Source: Escherichia coli (lineage in GTDB: Bacteria; Pseudomonadota; Gammaproteobacteria; Enterobacterales; Enterobacteriaceae). Taken from it: a stretch of DNA of 64,000 nucleotides. Both the position numbers and the translations under genes were made by a program. Position 1 is the first letter of the stretch. Every line of letters starts with the position of its first letter. The stretch lies in the NCBI RefSeq assembly GCF_002854065.1, contig NZ_CP024151.1. The stretch is one strand, 5' to 3'. Shown piece by piece: positions 1,050-56,647 of this stretch. The notes beneath the pieces were generated by a model. The model worked only from the letters and a program-made list of their open reading frames with translations. It was not told the DNA's origin and searched no databases.

Positions 1050-1280
1050 ATGAGAACCGTATCCATTTTTAAAAACGGCAATAACCGCGCCATCCGTCTG
1101 CCCCGCGATCTTGATTTTGAGGGGGTGAGCGAGCTGGAGATCGTCCGGGAAGGGGACAGCATCATCCTGCGCCCCGTCCGGCCGACCTGGGGCTCGTTCG
1201 CGAAGCTCGAAAAAGCTGACCCGGACTTTATGGCGGAGCGCGAGGACGTTGTCACCGACGAAGGACGGGTTAACCTGTGA
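1050..1280 (+). CDS. vagC: VagC/VapB-type antitoxin (SpoVT/AbrB fold)
   Basis: 76-aa ORF MRTVSIFKNGNNRAIRLPRDLDFEGVSELEIVREGDSIILRPV...; AbrB-like swapped-hairpin antitoxin; stop overlaps the start of the downstream PIN toxin gene. Confidence 0.85.
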   Translation: MRTVSIFKNGNNRAIRLPRDLDFEGVSELEIVREGDSIILRPVRPTWGSFAKLEKADPDFMAEREDVVTDEGRVNL

Positions 1281-1693
1281 ACAAAACGTATATGCTGGAC
1301 ACCAACATCTGCTCTTTCATCATGCGCGAGCAGCCGGAAGCCGTCCTGAAGCGCCTGGAGCAGGCGGTGCTGCGTGGCCACCGTATCGTGGTCTCGGCCA
1401 TCACTTATTCCGAAATGCGCTTCGGGGCTACCGGCCCGAAGGCCTCGCCGCGCCACGTGCAGCTGGTTGACGCGTTCTGCACCCGCCTCGATGCCATCCT
1501 GCCCTGGGATCGCGCCGCGGTGGACGCGACCACGGAGATTAAGGTGGCGCTGCGCCTCGCCGGGACGCCGATCGGCCCGAACGACACGGCGATTGCCGGA
1601 CACTCCATCGCCGCCGGTGCCGTGCTGGTGACGAATAATACGCGGGAATTTGAACGGGTACCGGGTCTTGTGCTGGAAGACTGGATAAGATAA
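1277..1693 (+). CDS. vagD: VagD/VapC-type PIN-domain toxin
   Basis: 138-aa ORF MNKTYMLDTNICSFIMREQPEAVLKRLEQ... with the N-terminal LDTN acidic PIN motif; 4-bp overlap with vagC. Confidence 0.85.
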   Translation: MNKTYMLDTNICSFIMREQPEAVLKRLEQAVLRGHRIVVSAITYSEMRFGATGPKASPRHVQLVDAFCTRLDAILPWDRAAVDATTEIKVALRLAGTPIGPNDTAIAGHSIAAGAVLVTNNTREFERVPGLVLEDWIR

Positions 1694-7158: not shown

Positions 7159-7273
7159 AAATTTTCCTTGCACATCCATTTTTTTGCGAATATTATTATT
7201 CCTGCTGAATATGATTCAATATCGCACGCTACTCATCCATCCCAGGATAATGAGTACATAGGTTGAAGTTTCA

Positions 7274-7301
7274 ACACCCCCATTACGGGGGTGTTTTTTT
7301 T
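7274..7301 (+). terminator. Rho-independent terminator
   Basis: 8-bp GC-rich stem ACACCCCC / GGGGGTGT with a 5-nt loop, followed by a T7 tract. Confidence 0.7.
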
Positions 7302-26670: not shown

Positions 26671-27196
<526 letters not shown>

Positions 27197-28011
27197 AATG
27201 CACCTCATCCTACATACTCTCTATACACAATTAAGTATACACCAGTATTACGCTATAGCATGCCTCAGGCAATGGAATATTGTTATCAGGCTATTATTAA
27301 CACTCACATCAATAACCAACACAAAAAGTAACCATGGCAGTAATAACCAGCAATGTAGTAACCATGCTAAATTACAGAATAACTGTTTTTTCATGATCCG
27401 ATTTTTATAGGATTCAGGAATTTCAGGAAGTTGATCACGATCAGTGAATAAGCGAAGTGATCTTTTCTGCCGCTGATGACTGGCTCGCGAACACGGGAAT
27501 AAACACAACATACAGTGTTATGTCAGCGGGCATGAACACAACATCCTGTGAAATCTGGCCAACGGACGGCAGCGAAGGATCTGCGGATCCGGAACAACCA
27601 GAAATCGGATCTCAGGAGAGGAGAAGAAGGATTATTGCCGAAAAGTCAAAAAAACGGCACATTGTTGCGGTGAATGGATTATTGCACAGAAAGCAAAATT
27701 TAAGGATTACTGCCCCTGATACAGCAACAAAGAGGGAAGGGAAACTTTTTTTCAGTTTTTTTACCGACCGGCCTTAAAGGCCGCATCGGATTTCCTAAAT
27801 ACAGTTTTAGAGAAGGTAAATTCTATGACTGTATTTTTGATGGCTATTGCCTACGGCATTTTAAAAACTAGGTGTTTCATTTTATTGGTAGTTAAGGGGT
27901 ATCCGGGCTGGACATTATTCTGGAAAAACTATGACCGTCTCCCTCATATCATCCGTTCCCGCTGCCGATACCAGAGACGATTCATGTTCAGACGCATCTG
28001 GAAGCGAGTCT

Positions 28012-38704: not shown

Positions 38705-38980
38705 CTACCTGTTTTCTCGTGTGTGCCACAGGCGCAATACATAAATAGTCTGGCCAGTAAGTTCGTAACGGATTTCGTACTCGCCAGCATAAATCCGTCT
38801 GACCTCCCTGGGTTCAAACTGAAACAACTGTTCTCCCATACGTGGATGAGTTAACAGAATGACCGGTGCCTGTGTCAGGGACTGCACCGTTCTGGCTGCA
38901 GCTGGTTTACTGGCCAGCGCCAGAAAATCATATAACCGCGCCAAATCAGAAAGCGCCTTACTGGTCCACTTCAGTTCCAT
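38705..38980 (-). CDS. RelE/ParE-family type II toxin
   Basis: 91-aa ORF ...IYAGEYEIRYELTGQTIYVLRLWHTRENR with the typical RelE/ParE C-terminus; immediately downstream of an antitoxin gene with ATGA overlap. Confidence 0.75.
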   Translation of the reverse strand: MELKWTSKALSDLARLYDFLALASKPAAARTVQSLTQAPVILLTHPRMGEQLFQFEPREVRRIYAGEYEIRYELTGQTIYVLRLWHTRENR

Positions 38981-39264
38981 CAGCGAGGCACCGGTAACGG
39001 ATTGTCAGTACCGAGGCTGTCCGCCCAGGCCTGTACAGCCTGATGGTCGATAACCTGTCCGGATGTCACATCGTCCAGGGCTTCCAGCGTCAGGCGATTA
39101 CGCTCCTCCTCCTGGGCAAGCCATGCAGAAAGCGCCTGTTTGATAATCCAGCCCCGGGACCGTTCCAGTCTGGCGGCCATCTGGTCGACTTTATCAGCCA
39201 TAGGTAATGGCACATGCGCAGTAATTACTTTTGTTACTTGTGCGGTATTGTTTTTCATTTGCAT
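38980..39264 (-). CDS. RelB/ParD-type antitoxin
   Basis: 94-aa ORF located directly upstream of and overlapping the toxin gene start. Confidence 0.65.
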   Translation of the reverse strand: MQMKNNTAQVTKVITAHVPLPMADKVDQMAARLERSRGWIIKQALSAWLAQEEERNRLTLEALDDVTSGQVIDHQAVQAWADSLGTDNPLPVPR

Positions 39265-41574: not shown

Positions 41575-41615
41575 ATAACTATACTCCCCGCATAGCTGAA
41601 TTGTTGGCTATGCGG
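41520..41615 (+). ncRNA. copA: Candidate CopA-like antisense RNA overlapping the tap start
   Basis: Plus-strand stem-loop CCGCATAGC-TGAATTGTTG-GCTATGCGG followed by TTTT at about 41584-41614, antisense to the repA leader and the tap initiation region; boundaries approximate. Confidence 0.35.
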
Positions 41616-41805
41616 TTTTATGGGGCCCCGGTAATCTTTCTAGTCGCCAAACTTGAAGAAGATTATCGGGGTTTTCGCTTTTCTGGCTCCTGTAAATCCA
41701 CATCAGAACCAGTTCCCTGCCACCTTACGGCGTGGCCAGCCACAAAATTCCTTAAACGATCAGCAATCTACCACTCACTCCTGAGATAAGCAAGAATGTG
41801 AATAT

Positions 41806-42063: not shown

Positions 42064-42322
42064 CTCGCCTCCTCAATTCTCAAACAGGGATCGTTTCGCA
42101 GAGAATACTACAGTTTTTTGAAATCAGCGACTTGAAAGTTGTGACGATGATCTGTGTTGGCGCACAAATCATGTCTGATTACGACCGTTTAATGTGATTT
42201 TGATAATGAAATGACTGAAAAGCTGGAAATGCCTTAGCCAGGGTGCCGGCCCCGGGCGGGACCGGCTGTTTCTGGTATATAGGATGTCTGCCCCTGAAAT
42301 ACCTCACACTTCCGGAAAGCGG

Positions 42323-42529
42323 GGACTTCCGTGCTTCGTAGGCCAGAGTTACCTGCACCACTGTATTTCCTCTGTGAATATTCAGCTCACATAACCGTTC
42401 CCTGAATATCAGTGAAAAACACAACACCATGGCGCACACGGCGAGCAACCCGATAAGGGCATATTTCGTCATAAACTTTGACCTCTCTGCAAAGAAGAGG
42501 CTACAATCAGTAGTGTTAAGGTACTTCAT
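42323..42529 (-). CDS. srnB: Hok/SrnB-family type I toxin, with overlapping mok-like leader frame
   Basis: MKYLNTTDCSLFFAERSKFMTKYALIGLLAVCAMVLCFSLIFRERLCELNIHRGNTVVQVTLAYEARK embedded in a longer track ORF (42179-42634); the ORF lacks a stop after the conserved ...AYEARK terminus. Confidence 0.7.
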
Positions 42530-43505
42530 GCAGACCTCACGAGTTAATGGATTAACGAGTGGGGTCTTCGCATTTCTGGTACCTGCGTCTTGCCTGAACC
42601 AGAAAGGCTCAGACACCCGCCGCGATAATACCACATTCCCTGTTGCTGGCTATTACCCCCATTTGCCTGTTTTTGTTACAAAAACGCCGGGAGCGGGGGA
42701 AAACTTACTTTTTCCCGTTTCCGGGGGGGACAACTGAGCATTGCGAACGCGTCAGCTACGATGTTCCGGTGATTGCTGATCAGCCCCTGTTGTATTCATA
42801 AACTAATTAACATTCATTCCGTCTGGTGCATAAATCTGCCCGTGAACATCTGCAGACAATACCGACCATAAAAAAATAAATAATCCCAGTAGAATATATT
42901 TCCTCATATTATTATCCATAACAAATAAATGGCACCTGTACACCTGTATTTCAGGCAATCCTGAATATTGCAGCGCACATTGAATAAGACGTTATTTCGT
43001 GACATTAATCACAAAATATAAAATCGCGACTTAATACGGAAAAAACTCTGTGCTACTCAGAACTGACTGGTCATACTGCCCGACCGGATATTAAAAAAGC
43101 AAATCTCATAAACTCCTTTCAGCCTTCTGACTCCTGGAGTAATGAAGGCTGCTTTTTCGTTACACCCTTCCCCGGCAGCGCCGGTAGCAGTGTTCAGCCC
43201 TTTTTCGGGCAAACTGCTGCCAGTCTGTCCGGGGCGCAACACAGGCAGCCCGTCGCCATCCTTCTGCCGCTTCCATCCAGCGTCCACTGACCTCCAGAAT
43301 AACGGCCCGGCTTCCGGCACGCTGCCAGCGCCAGACCTGACCGTTCCGTGAACTGTTTCTGAATCCATTCATCTTTATCACTCCTCTTTAACCCGTCAGT
43401 ATTATGGTGTTAAATAATCTACTGAATTGGCTTCCTTTCGGGTACGGAAGTTTATTTCCTTTTAAGCCTTATTTCCCTGCCTCCTCTCTCTGATGGAGGC
43501 TTTTT

Positions 43506-44886: not shown

Positions 44887-47800
44887 TCAGTCTCCGCCCA
44901 GGGTTTTCTCTTTCTGCAGGGCACGAACCATATCCCGCTCCATCTGCTGCAGTCGCTCCTGCAGCAGATTTTCCCGGGCAACATCCCGGACCGCTTCCCG
45001 CACCCGTTGTGATTCACGCAGCACACTCTCCGGCAGCGCGGCTTCCCGTTCAGATATGGCAGACCGGTCACGCTCCTGCCCGGCAATCTCCCTGACAGCC
45101 TGCTCTGTTTTGCCATCCGGCAGGTCAGGTTTGTTCTCTGCCATTTTACGGACAATTTCATCCGCACGGCGTTCCGTTTCACGGCGGATGGCCTCTTCAG
45201 CTTGCCGCTGTGCCAGTACCTCTGCCGTGACCGGTTCGCCATTTCCGGCTCCCGGCTGAACGCTGTTGTCCGGGATATCCCCCCACACGCGACCACCGGT
45301 GATGGTACCGGGATTCCACGGACGACCTTCACCGGCGATTCTTACCACCACACCGCTGTCAGGATTATCACGGGCAATCCGGACACCATCCTGCATATTA
45401 TCAGCCAGCAGGCTCTCTCCGTTACGGCTGCCCTGCAGGGCCACGAACTGCGCATCCCCGCTGCCTTTCACCCGGCCTTCACCACTGAAGCCCCGCAGCC
45501 CGTTTCCGTCATCCGTGGTCAGCGGATTCAGCCAGATACCGGCGGACTTGCCGTTACGGTCAAAAGCCGGCAGTGCCACATACGGCTGCGGATATTTGCG
45601 CCCGGGTGCAATAAACCGTGCAGGATTGTCTCCCCCGGCAAGTCCCGCCTGACGGAGAACGGCACGGCCGGCCGCCACGTCCCGCAGCTCCCGCGCCGTA
45701 CTGAACAGCCGCTCTGCATTCATGACCTCCCGGTCCGATTTCGGCTCAAGCACATCGTGGGCAGTTCCTTTCTGTACGGCATTGTTAATGGCATCCGTCC
45801 AGCCCTGACGGTTATCGGTATACACCTGCACATGCTGCTTCATACGCGACAGGGCCACGTAGGCTGACTCAAAGCCGGCCATCTGTTTCCGGCTGCCTTC
45901 CGTACCTTCAAGCGCGATGGCAAAGGTTTCACTTGCCCCCTGCGCACCGTGGGCGGTGATGGCATAGGCCAGGTCAATATGTTGCTCTGCCCGCTCCTGA
46001 CCGGGGCGAATCACCCGGGTCTGCTGTCCGTCCGACAGCGTGACACTGTCACCGGAAACCGCTGTCACCGTCCAGACGCTGTTGGCCACATAACCGCGCT
46101 CCCGGTCACTCTTCGTGAAGCGCATCCGGTCACCGGTTCCCACCCGGATGGTGTCCGGGGTGTACAGTGTGACGCCTTCAGCCACCGCCTCCCGGGGCGA
46201 AATCAGCCGCGTGTTACCTTCAGCATCCTGCAGGGTTATCAGCCCGTCATCCCTGCTGATACCGGCAATCCGGTGATACACATTATCCACCAGGGCAAGT
46301 GCGTCCCGATGTGTCTCCCAGGTGGAGAGACGACGCAGCTCCCCGTCGCGTATATTCGCTGTGTTCAGGACAGGCACCATGACCTGCTCTTTTCCCAGCT
46401 CACCGGCCTTTTCCCGTGCATCATGAATCATGCTGTTCAGCACGCGCCGGTCCTCATTCAGGTGCGTGACAATCAGCGTCTGCTCCCGTGCTTCCGGTGT
46501 TCTGCCGGTATAGTCGCGGACAATGGCTTCATACAGTGTCATGGGGACATCCGGGAAAGCCTCGCCTTTCAGCATCGCCTTCTGCTGCGCTTCTGCCAGT
46601 TTCGCTTCCTGGCTGTGACTGAACTCCATCACGGAGTGCTCCGGTGCCCATGCGCCCTCCAGACGTGGCACCTGAGACGGTTTCACACTCTCAAGCCCGG
46701 ATAGTGCCCTTTCCACATCCCGGTTAATCAGGTTGTATACCGCCTCCCGCAGTTCCGGCGTCTGACGCACAATCTCCTTCATGATGGCCACATCGGCAGC
46801 ACTGCGCGTCTGCTGGAGACGGAAAGGCTGACCGGGCGCGATGGCCTGCAGCTGGTCCGTGTCACCACTGGCCACGGCACGACCGCCACCGGCCGCAATC
46901 AGGGCGTATGCCCGTGCCATGTCGGTATTGCCCACCATTGAGCTCTCATCGAGCAGGAACAGCGTGTTGCTGAAATCCGGCGTTTCTCCGCTGCGCTGCT
47001 GCAGCTGCGTGTCATGCAGAAAAGACGCCAATGTCTGCGCATCCACGCCGGCGCTGCGCATCTCCCCGACCGCACGGTGTGTGGGACCCAGCCCAACGAC
47101 ACGGGGACGCTCACTCTCCGGCAGCATGTTCACGGCTGACATCACCGCCCGGAACTGTGTGGTCTTACCCACACCGGCATAGCCCTGCACCACCGTGAAG
47201 CGGTCGGACGTTTCCAGTATCATGCGGGTGGCGGCGCGCTGTCCTGATGTCAGTTTCTCCATGAGTTCGCCAGGTACTCTCTCCATCAGCGGCGTGACCG
47301 CCTCCTTACCTTCGAGAATATGGCGAAGAATGCTCTTTTCTGCCTCATACGACGCACGGGAAACCAGCAGGCCTGTGCCATAGTCTTTTGCCACATCCAC
47401 ATACAGTAAATCACCCCGTTTTATCTGCGCATCGATTTCCCCTCCCAGTTCAGTAAAACTGGTTCCTTCTGCAGCAAACGACTTCGCCTCTGTCAGCAGG
47501 TCCACCATGCTGAAGGCCAGGTTTTTACTTTCCAGCACAGGAAGGGCCAGATGAATGGCCTGCTGTGCCGGCGTGTGAAGCCCGGCTTTCTGCAGACTGA
47601 TAGCGGTTTCCAGCAATGTCTCACCGGCACGCGCCTTTATCTGCTCAGAAACCACCGTAAAGGAGGGATGGCGGGCAAGTTTTTCCGCAGTACGGGTTTC
47701 ATCCAGTGAGGAATACAGCCGGACATCACGACCGCTGCGGGCCAGACCGTTCAGGGTGGCGTTGTCCATTGCCATCTGTGTGACGGAGGCAAAAACCTTC

Positions 47801-53825: not shown

Positions 53826-56647
53826 AATGGCCCCTTCAATCGTTCTTTCTTATCATCCACCATCTGTTTTAACGCATCTTCAGACGGTGTTGGCATTAAT
53901 TTCTGTCGTTTATTTTCTTCATTATATCTGTTGTTTTGTTGAATTTCTTCCTGTTTGTGATTATTTTTTAACTCTGAATATTGTCTGTCTACAATATTTT
54001 CTTCGCCATGAATACTATTCTGAGTATCTCCGATATTCCCTTTATATTCTGTGACCATATTATCAACCTGATGTTTTACATCATTACGGATATTACTGTC
54101 CTGCGTTCTTTGATCAATAATGGCCTGATGCCCCTGATGGTCAGCAATAATATCCTGGCTGCCACCACCCGAAGGTACGCTCTCCATTCCTTTACCAATA
54201 TCCCCACGGGATTCACGCCAGGCATTATCAACACCAGGCTGCACCTGTTCCTGAACAAAAGACCATGCCATCGCCCGACGGCGTTCTGCAATCTCCGGTG
54301 AACTGGTGTTTGTCAGAATAGCTTCGGCATCCTGCGGTGCGTGTTTCATCACATACTGTGCAAACTGTTGCGACAAATCTTCGCTCATCTGCCCACTCAT
54401 GCTTTCAGTACGGGATGCCATTTCAGCATATTCATGGCTGCGGGTCATATTCGTCGTGTACTGGTCGTAACTCTGTTTCGCTGAGTTCAGGGCTGCAGAC
54501 AACTGGTCCACGCGGGAATCGGCATTATTGTCAGTATGGCTGCCGGATTCACTGACTTTGCGACTGGTAAAGTAATCGCTGGCCTCTTTAAAGTCCTTAC
54601 TGGCTTTAGCATCGATATCATGGCGAGCATCATGGGTAGCCCTGCTGCCACTACTTGCTGAATGTGAGTCATCATCCGTTGCATCCAGGCTCCCCTTAAA
54701 TCCACCTCTGATGCCTACCCCACCACCAACACCAAGAATTTTAGGTTTAACCCCCCATTCAGCATGAGCATCAGCATACATTCCACCAGATAGCCTGGTA
54801 CTTGTTGATGCCAGTTCCTGAGTCGCCTGCTCATTACTGATATTATGCGCCTTCGCATAGCTTTCCACTGCACTGCGCATACGGCTGGCCATCATGGAGT
54901 CCTGAGCACTCATCGTGCTGTCAGCACCACCGGTGACAGAATCACTGCTCCCCCGGTTAGAACCAAACTGACTGAGCGTGTTCCAGGCACTGGCAATACT
55001 GCTGCTGAACCCATGCAGGGCACTTTCTGCTCTGTTCGATGCTTCCCGGGCCATTTCCTGTTGTGCCGCCGCAATCTGACGCGTTGCATTGATGCCGACC
55101 GGTAACCGGGACATCGCTCCGCTTGCATCCATCACCATATTACCGTCACGGGTCTGTGTGGCGGTTGCGCCACTGCCGGTCTGGTACATCATCTGACCAA
55201 ACGACGTGGTGCTGTTGGTGCTCCAGCTGAAGCCGTTAACATTCTCCGTCTGCATGTTGCCGTAGGAGTAATTACCGTCAACCACACTGCCTGCTGCACT
55301 GGCGGTCGGGCTGATAGCAGAGGAAGCGAAATGGCTGTACACACTGGAAAATCCTGCCCCGAGCCCCCTGACCATCATCCAGGATAATGGCGGGATCATC
55401 ATGGAAAGATACCCGGCAGTGGAAGCCAGATCGGAGTATTTCAGCTGTATCTGTGAAATTTCCGAGAGCACCACCGGTGCACCATTCTGCTTTGCATAAA
55501 ATGTCATGGCGCTGTTCAGAATGGCGTACAACATTGGCCATGACTGCAACCACATCAGGGCAAACACATAGCCTTTCAGGACGGACAGCGTCAGTTTGTT
55601 GAAGACAGCCGCCAGTACCAGGAGCGGGAAAATACCGATGGCGATCCCCGTCAGGATGGTCTGCGTCATGGGCAGTGTCCGCATCGCCACATGACCGATG
55701 GAGACATGTGCCAGACGTTGCTTCTCCATCGATGATGTGGTGGCCAGATTCACCAGGCTGGCCGAATCACCATTACGTGCGGCATAACTGGTGATCCCCT
55801 CCTTCAGCGCATTGATGGTGACATTCTGGCGGATGATCTGGCTGGCTGATTTACTTGAGCCATAGAAGTAACTGTAACTGTCGCCAATCAGCGTACTGAA
55901 CAACAGGTTCGGATCAGGGCGTCCACCAAATAGCTGCTGGGCATAATAATGCCATGTTTTTCCGCCACTCTGTGTGTCCAGATTCAGCTTGTCTTTCAGC
56001 GAAACCGACGCGTCCTTACAGGTCACGAAATTATTATTGCTGTCATAAACGCCCCGCAGCGGACTGGGGCGGGAAAAAATCAGCGTGTAAGGATCAGCGG
56101 AGGCCATCAGTTCCTCCAGCGTGTATTTGTGGTTCAGGTAAATATCCCCCATCACGCAGTTCTGCACATAATCCTGGAAAAGATTGGCGATTTCCGGATT
56201 ACGGGACAAAAAGTCGGTGCTTTTTGATACCAGTTCTGCGCCAAACAGCATCCCCGTTTTGCTGTAGGTGACACTGTCCGGTTGCGTGAAGATCATCTCG
56301 TAACTGGCCACCATTGCATGCCCGATACGGGTCGTCAGTGAAAGTGGCATCGCCAGTCCGACCGGCACATTATCCACCCGGTGAACTTTGACCAGGTCAC
56401 TGTTATCAATAATCTGCACCGATGTGCGGACATTAACCAGCAGGCTGATAAGCACAAACACGGCCACCCAGCCCAGCAAATCCATCACGTTGTGCCGCTG
56501 TACCCACATTACGGCCACCGCGAGAACAGACAATGTGAGCGCAATTTTTTCAATGGAATCCCACGTCCGGGTCCCCATAAAGGCGGCAATGGCATTCAGG
56601 TTATTCCGCAACCACTCACCACCGGCAATCACATAAACTTCATTCAC
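53822..56647 (-). CDS. traG: TraG mating-pair stabilisation / pilus assembly protein
   Basis: 941-aa ORF with N-terminal membrane domain; position between traH and traS. Confidence 0.9.
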   Translation of the reverse strand: MNEVYVIAGGEWLRNNLNAIAAFMGTRTWDSIEKIALTLSVLAVAVMWVQRHNVMDLLGWVAVFVLISLLVNVRTSVQIIDNSDLVKVHRVDNVPVGLAMPLSLTTRIGHAMVASYEMIFTQPDSVTYSKTGMLFGAELVSKSTDFLSRNPEIANLFQDYVQNCVMGDIYLNHKYTLEELMASADPYTLIFSRPSPLRGVYDSNNNFVTCKDASVSLKDKLNLDTQSGGKTWHYYAQQLFGGRPDPNLLFSTLIGDSYSYFYGSSKSASQIIRQNVTINALKEGITSYAARNGDSASLVNLATTSSMEKQRLAHVSIGHVAMRTLPMTQTILTGIAIGIFPLLVLAAVFNKLTLSVLKGYVFALMWLQSWPMLYAILNSAMTFYAKQNGAPVVLSEISQIQLKYSDLASTAGYLSMMIPPLSWMMVRGLGAGFSSVYSHFASSAISPTASAAGSVVDGNYSYGNMQTENVNGFSWSTNSTTSFGQMMYQTGSGATATQTRDGNMVMDASGAMSRLPVGINATRQIAAAQQEMAREASNRAESALHGFSSSIASAWNTLSQFGSNRGSSDSVTGGADSTMSAQDSMMASRMRSAVESYAKAHNISNEQATQELASTSTRLSGGMYADAHAEWGVKPKILGVGGGVGIRGGFKGSLDATDDDSHSASSGSRATHDARHDIDAKASKDFKEASDYFTSRKVSESGSHTDNNADSRVDQLSAALNSAKQSYDQYTTNMTRSHEYAEMASRTESMSGQMSEDLSQQFAQYVMKHAPQDAEAILTNTSSPEIAERRRAMAWSFVQEQVQPGVDNAWRESRGDIGKGMESVPSGGGSQDIIADHQGHQAIIDQRTQDSNIRNDVKHQVDNMVTEYKGNIGDTQNSIHGEENIVDRQYSELKNNHKQEEIQQNNRYNEENKRQKLMPTPSEDALKQMVDDKKERLKGPL

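Follow-up and report, generated by a model that had tools for sequence, protein, structure and literature searches.

A natural 24-bp slipped-strand deletion, recurrent among F-like plasmids of Escherichia coli, removes the srnB stop codon and half of the adjoining hairpin and probably leaves a null toxin

The srnB/srnC locus of an F-like IncFIB/FIC plasmid of Escherichia coli carries a natural 24-bp deletion, of the kind expected from strand slippage between short repeats, and we consider it likely (with a probability of about 0.8) that the resulting allele is a null toxin. We studied the locus in a stretch of 64,000 nucleotides from contig NZ_CP024151.1 (assembly GCF_002854065.1), hereafter the window, whose sequence is almost the same as that of the IncFIB/FIC plasmid pPM4-5-103k. 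With finO/traX on one side and the repA2(copB)-CopA-tap-repA genes of an IncFII/FIC replicon on the other, srnB/srnC occupies the site at which it is classically found in F-like plasmids (Table 1).

Table 1. Elements of the srnB/srnC locus and neighbouring features, in positions of the window.
Feature	Position	Strand	Basis or remark
srnB mRNA promoter-like site, TAGCCA + 16 nt spacer + TG-TATTAT	42625..42652	-	9/12 consensus matches, TG present
srnB mRNA 5' leader (tac element, SrnC target, srnB' start)	42460..42618	-	Rfam RF01794
tac element GGGUGUCUG	42618-42610	-	mRNA 5' end
srnB' leader MKYLNTTDCSLFFAERSKF, 19 codons from ATG 42529, in frame with srnB, mok-equivalent	42473..42529	-	GAGG 7 nt upstream
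SrnC (Sok-like) antisense promoter-like site, TTGACC + 18 nt spacer + TACAAT	42478..42507	+	10/12 matches
SrnC antisense RNA (predicted; ends approximate)	42514..42580	+	MFE -31.5 kcal/mol, z -4.7
SrnB (Hok/Gef), 49 codons, ATG 42472 to AAG 42326	42326..42472	-	ORF translation, Pfam, alignments
Deletion junction, lone 8-bp direct repeat ACGGAAGT	42325..42332	-	alignments
Read-through SPLSGSVRYFRGRHPIYQKQPVPPGAGTLAKAFPAFQSFHYQNHIKRS, 48 codons (42325 down to 42182) and new stop TAA 42181-42179	42179..42325	-	former 3'-UTR
Third CGGAAGT copy	42308..42314	-	partner in 17-bp deletions of other plasmids
fbi-like element CAGACAUCC, complementary to mRNA 5' end	42282..42290	-	MFE folds
GC-rich hairpin CCGGUCCC-GCCC-GGGGCCGG, downstream of fbi; no U-run	42246..42265	-	sequence
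repA2/copB, 85 aa	41806-42063	-	IncFII/FIC replicon
CopA antisense RNA (RF00042)	41592-41680	+	Rfam 93.6 bits
AS-pc02 (RF02876, 'antisense to pHK01_099')	43080-43263	+	Rfam 177.7 bits
vapBC type II module	1050-1693	+	mapping to annotated sister plasmid, ORF matching
ccdAB type II module	~26671-27208	-	mapping to annotated sister plasmid, ORF matching
relE/parE with CopG-type antitoxin	38705-39264	-	mapping to annotated sister plasmid, ORF matching
UptR sRNA	7204-7295	+	Rfam gathering-level match
AS-traI	47232-47308	+	Rfam gathering-level match
AS-traG	55843-55928	+	Rfam gathering-level match

The toxin gene sits inside a minus-strand open reading frame of 151 aa (42179..42634), made up of consecutive stretches of 35, 19, 49 and 48 codons. 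Its GTG at 42634 is a mechanical start, upstream of the mRNA 5' end that promoter and Rfam place at 42618; with the message beginning at about that position, the first 35 codons would fall outside it. The real starts are ATG 42529, which opens the in-frame srnB' leader and is also where the 116-aa CDS called by PGAP in sister plasmids begins, and ATG 42472, which opens srnB. The SrnB toxin itself (MTKYALIGLLAVCAMVLCFSLIFRERLCELNIHRGNTVVQVTLAYEARK) is complete, with the N-terminal transmembrane helix and the conserved Cys-containing C-terminal part of a Hok/Gef domain. Pfam HOK_GEF (PF01848) covers residues 58-99 of the 151-aa frame at 28.9 bits (cutoff 22), and the sole change in the 49-aa core relative to SrnB of plasmid F (WP_001312851) is Thr15Met (codon 42430-42428), in the transmembrane segment, which sets the window apart from other intact alleles as well. 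While a toxin frame of this family is about 50 aa long and terminates directly after the conserved C-terminus, here the stop has been deleted: none follows ...AYEARK, and the codons SPLSGS...HIKRS continue in the same frame. The initial annotation had described a toxin frame without its native stop, running through the structured 3' region, and both the ORF and the alignment with intact alleles bear this out, although its figure of more than 80 additional codons was an over-count, the breakdown of the ORF giving 48. This tail matches no Pfam domain, HOK_GEF being the only one in the whole frame, and the read-through frame ends 116 bp short of the copB start.

That the stop is missing is not a matter of chance, as alignment with intact alleles traces it to a discrete event. 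Against both the intact allele of NZ_OW967796 and plasmid F (NC_002483), the window lacks a single block of 24 bp, bordered by ACGGAAGT repeats. The order in intact alleles is GAAGC-ACGGAAGT-AAGCTGCCGGGCGGGG-ACGGAAGT-CCCCGC, and the window retains one copy of the repeat. In the intact arrangement, the TAA stop overlaps the 3' end of the first copy (the last base of the repeat is the T of TAA), and a hairpin with a 10-bp GC stem, GGGCGGGGAC-GGAA-GUCCCCGCUU, begins 7 nt downstream of it. The deletion, which preserves the frame, takes away both the TAA and the 5' arm of this hairpin. Judged by its sequence, the loss carries the signature of slippage between the 8-bp direct repeats; the region as a whole holds three CGGAAGT copies, at spacings of 24 and 17 bp. 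Stop and hairpin are kept in plasmid F and in more than 1,500 other plasmids. The initial annotation had also allowed that reference srnB genes might share the long frame, a possibility now ruled out, given that plasmid F and the common 49-aa WP_001312851 allele have TAA directly after ...EARK.

The same junction is found well beyond the window. We searched for it by megablast with a 40-mer, whose longest uninterrupted match to intact alleles is no more than 24 bases, fewer than the 28-base word size, so that the probe cannot seed on them. It was present in 16 PLSDB plasmids and in 15 of the 5,426 complete RefSeq E. coli genomes, in the latter always on a plasmid, and seven PLSDB plasmids match the window at 100% identity across 621 bp. 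The sources of the deleted alleles span several countries and include pigs, cattle, humans, a goose, seawater and wastewater. The deleted alleles are rare, at about 0.3-0.7% of srnB-bearing plasmids. They occur on at least three srnB backgrounds that differ from one another by 12-24 substitutions, each close to its own intact counterpart: the window lineage (2/440 substitutions from NZ_OW967796), the O103:H2 plasmid AP038982 (0/440 from CP027580) and the CP025574 lineage (0/440 from CP099765 and CP015086). A single clonal allele is thereby ruled out, and the parsimonious reading of these sequences is that at least three independent 24-bp deletions took place. Because the same junction recurs in many plasmids and genomes and on at least three backgrounds, we regard the deletion as natural and recurrent rather than as an artefact.

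Other deletions strike the same structure. A 17-bp deletion between the second and third CGGAAGT copies (e.g., CP057230 and pCP301; equivalent to window positions 42308-42332) is present in 77 PLSDB records, 66 of them Shigella virulence plasmids, and a 10-bp deletion is a singleton in OZ039654; both remove the 3' arm of the hairpin and keep the stop. In pCP301, the one Shigella plasmid examined, the srnB locus is an IS-flanked remnant. Taken together, the 24-, 17- and 10-bp losses mark the post-stop hairpin of srnB, at the level of sequence comparison, as a deletion hot spot. One carrier of the 24-bp deletion, CP099153, has a further 16-bp deletion which removes most of the downstream GC hairpin (window 42246-42265) and shifts the read-through frame, a pattern consistent with continuing decay.

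A different lesion marks the widespread srnB lineage of CP099765, CP015086 and CP025574, which includes O25b:H4 plasmids (WP_023144756). Here, a 2-bp deletion (TAC to T, at the window equivalent of about 42335-42340) creates a TGA, and the toxin is 44 aa long, ending in ...VTLA without YEARK; in the same lineage, the srnB' leader carries a 1-bp indel. By analogy with R1 Hok, in which Y48N is a loss-of-function suppressor (Le Rhun et al., PMC9841398), this common 44-aa allele may also be weak or inactive. We considered whether the 2-bp deletion in the CP025574 lineage could be a compensatory repair that restored a stop, and ruled this out, since it pre-exists in the widespread lineage that retains the 24 bp.

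In contrast to its 3' end, the 5' half of the locus (srnB promoter, srnB' start, SrnC promoter and SrnC RNA) shows no difference from intact alleles, nor does the leader at 42460..42618. Over 621 bp, three substitutions separate the window from the nearest intact allele: one at 42649 in the -35 region, the codon change behind Thr15Met at 42430-42428, and C-to-U at 42284, inside the fbi-like element. We place the start of srnB transcription at 42618, where a sigma-70-like promoter points and where position 1 of the Rfam model RF01794 (sok/hok leader) aligns; the model matches 42460-42618 (-) at 94.5 bits against a gathering cutoff of 59. The srnB' leader provides the reading frame that mok provides in hok, with putative translational coupling to the toxin. 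On the opposite strand, the predicted SrnC has a promoter-like site of its own and overlaps the start region of the leader ORF, all within the RF01794 match; in its predicted fold, a single-stranded 5' tail complementary to the srnB' start region precedes a strong hairpin, after which comes a U-rich tail. Although RF01794 is named 'sok antitoxin', it matches the toxin-mRNA strand, from the predicted srnB mRNA 5' end to about 10 nt past the srnB ATG, and it seems to describe the hok/srnB leader, not the RNA in antisense orientation.

How the deletion alters the message can be gauged from predicted folds. In the intact srnB mRNA, folded as nt 1-362 from the predicted start, nt 1-9 (GGGUGUCUG) pair with nt 353-361 (CAGACACCC), which is the tac/fbi interaction of this family, and the 10-bp hairpin occupies nt 303-326, just after the stop at nt 294-296. 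When the intact mRNA is cut after the hairpin, the 5' end is predicted to refold into a stem of its own while the hairpin caps the 3' end. The deleted mRNA retains the long-range pairing in its MFE prediction, with nt 1-9 against CAGACAUCC at nt 329-337, and thus the topology of the intact allele and of R1-type hok, except for one G-C pair that has become G-U through the C-to-U change at 42284. The GC-rich stem-loop that would protect the 3' end of the processed mRNA is absent, its 5' arm being deleted, and the local stability of the hairpin region falls from -19.8 kcal/mol in the intact allele to -5.9 kcal/mol. An R1-type hok allele folds in the same layout as srnB, with the stop followed by GGAGGCGGGC-GCAG-GCCCGCCUU and then by fbi (CUGAAGCGCC), and on these models the srnB hairpin is the positional and structural homologue of the R1 hok stem.

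Our functional reading of srnB is transferred wholly from this homologue, which shares about 40% protein identity with SrnB and the same mRNA plan. In R1 hok, six substitutions that destroy the stop codon (nt 330-332) and add 17 aa are loss-of-function suppressors, and toxicity is also lost when an 8-aa FLAG tag is fused to the C-terminus (Le Rhun et al., PMC9841398). Single changes in the hairpin that caps the processed, translatable mRNA likewise abolish toxicity, and with G345A and C358A the truncated mRNA is absent (PMC9841398). With a 5-nt offset for the hok allele that we retrieved, the published positions map to the stop codon and to G and C residues of the stem. By this analogy, the window srnB is very probably a dead toxin gene. 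The initial annotation had suggested inactivation through loss of the stop; this stands as the most likely consequence, but the cause is wider than the stop, as half of the hairpin, its 5' arm, goes with it.

If the R1 scheme holds, the srnB hairpin would close off the 3' end of the processed, translatable mRNA as its terminal stem-loop. The full-length mRNA of the deleted allele would still be made and would still be closed, while 3'-to-5' exonucleolytic trimming of this inert form would meet no roadblock; with no stopping point for the trimming, no stable active srnB mRNA would be expected to accumulate. Any product that is translated would consist of SrnB with a basic, proline-rich tail of 48 residues at its periplasmic end, and would be non-toxic if it behaves like extended R1 Hok. 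Should the transcript end near fbi (at about 42280, as in R1, which leaves some 100 nt to the new stop) or at 42265-42246, where the GC hairpin is a possible transcript-end structure, the message would contain no in-frame stop, and its product would therefore be tagged for degradation by tmRNA. We offer this non-stop step as a conjecture. No terminator was predicted on the minus strand from the fbi element to the new stop. The plasmid would tolerate the loss of the toxin because it also carries three type II modules, vapBC, ccdAB and relE/parE.

A competing interpretation is that the extended protein of 97 or 116 aa is a functional toxin variant, whose transmembrane helix inserts and whose tail is either tolerated or confers a new property. 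The whole SrnB core is indeed kept save for Thr15Met, the frame remains open to a TAA 48 codons on, RefSeq labels the extended frame as a Hok/Gef family protein, and the deleted allele persists in plasmids of pigs, cattle, humans and wastewater; moreover, some Hok-family fusions may retain activity. On the other hand, the deletion destroys the hairpin on which a stable translatable mRNA would depend, the tail derives from UTR sequence and matches no domain, and one lineage has since gained the frame-breaking 16-bp deletion in the tail region. That the extended frame is open in two independent lineages carries little weight, as these lineages are too young to be informative. Given, in addition, that a shorter read-through of 17 aa and an 8-aa C-terminal tag each abolish the toxicity of R1 Hok (PMC9841398), we find a functional variant quite improbable. 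Still harder to credit is a sequencing or assembly error, be it a single base, as the initial annotation had proposed, or a local mis-assembly. While a GC-rich hairpin close to repeats makes for a difficult template, the clean 24-bp gap against NZ_OW967796 and NC_002483 rules out a single-base error or frameshift, and the agreement of seven identical plasmids, together with the recurrence of the junction in PLSDB records and complete genomes from unrelated laboratories and hosts, means that on sequence grounds an assembly error is excluded for practical purposes.

A last alternative accepts the dead toxin and holds that the toxin-dead, antitoxin-intact allele has been selected, either for anti-addiction, with SrnC neutralising the srnB mRNA of competing or incoming F-like plasmids, or for a lower plasmid cost. 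Repeated hits on one hairpin (the 24-bp deletion at least three times, the 17-bp deletion in 77 plasmids and the 10-bp deletion in one) would fit such selection, as would a 5' half in which the SrnC promoter and RNA are identical to intact alleles. However, three CGGAAGT copies beside a hairpin make a mutational hot spot, so that the recurrence is explained without selection, and conservation of SrnC is expected in young alleles either way. The 24-bp deletion is also rare, and the 17-bp copies reside mostly on Shigella virulence plasmids, the one examined having only a remnant of the locus. We see selection as an unlikely explanation. The broader proposal, that the srnB hairpin amid three CGGAAGT copies is a fragile site which recurrently yields toxin-dead, antisense-only cassettes kept for anti-addiction or lower cost, is in our view no less unlikely. 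A null toxin left by strand slippage remains our preferred reading.

Set beside known systems, the locus most resembles srnB/srnC of plasmid F, with which it shares the order finO, srnB, repA2/copB, near-identity outside the deletion over the aligned 552 bp, the promoter, the in-frame srnB' leader, the SrnC antisense gene and the tac/fbi complementarity; it differs in the 24 bp that are missing (TAA and hairpin 5' arm), in Thr15Met and in the change of an fbi pairing from G-C to G-U. Compared with the laboratory suppressors of R1 hok obtained by FASTBAC-Seq (PMC9841398), the window allele combines two classes, namely stop loss with a C-terminal extension and disruption of the terminal stem-loop. 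Whereas those suppressors are single laboratory-selected substitutions, here one spontaneous 24-bp deletion in wild plasmids does both. The likeness to non-stop mRNAs handled by trans-translation (tmRNA/SsrA) would apply to a transcript ending close to fbi or to the GC hairpin; unlike such mRNAs, the message has a TAA 48 codons downstream should transcription read through. There is also a parallel in the chromosome of E. coli K-12, where hok loci were reportedly found by Pedersen and Gerdes in 1999 to be inactivated by IS elements, point mutations or rearrangements. Like the window locus, these decayed loci keep recognisable RNA elements and no longer yield an active toxin, but they are chromosomal and mostly IS-disrupted, whereas the window locus is plasmid-borne and has suffered a repeat-mediated micro-deletion at its 3' end. 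In the literature on srnB deletion alleles, we found nothing relevant.

With toxin domain, antisense gene, leader ORF and tac/fbi pairing present, and native stop and terminal stem-loop gone, the window srnB is best filed as a decayed member of the Hok/Sok family and as ordinary gene decay, not as a variant with a new mechanism; the mildly novel element is only the recurrent, repeat-mediated targeting of the hairpin. Our understanding of the Hok/Sok system is unchanged by this allele. The wild lesions nevertheless match the stop-loss and terminal-stem classes of the R1 hok saturation mutagenesis and so lend independent natural support to that functional map. There is also a practical implication for annotation. 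PGAP and RefSeq label the frame as a 116-aa or 97-aa Hok/Gef protein with no pseudogene flag, and an older run as an 83-aa hypothetical protein; inventories of plasmid toxin-antitoxin systems ('srnBC present', IncF typing) would thus count an addiction system that very probably does not work.

Several neighbouring features deserve mention. CopA and repA2/copB lie immediately downstream of srnB, and the AS-pc02 match falls in the finO-srnB intergenic region, where it overlaps small hypothetical ORFs. Rfam found no second hok/sok locus in the window, the leading-region hok of the sister plasmid lying outside it. In that near-identical sister plasmid (NZ_CP096835.1, 72641-74275), an IS150 sits directly upstream of the leading-region hok/mok, with mok flagged as partial, and both Hok-family loci of NZ_CP096835.1 may therefore be disabled.
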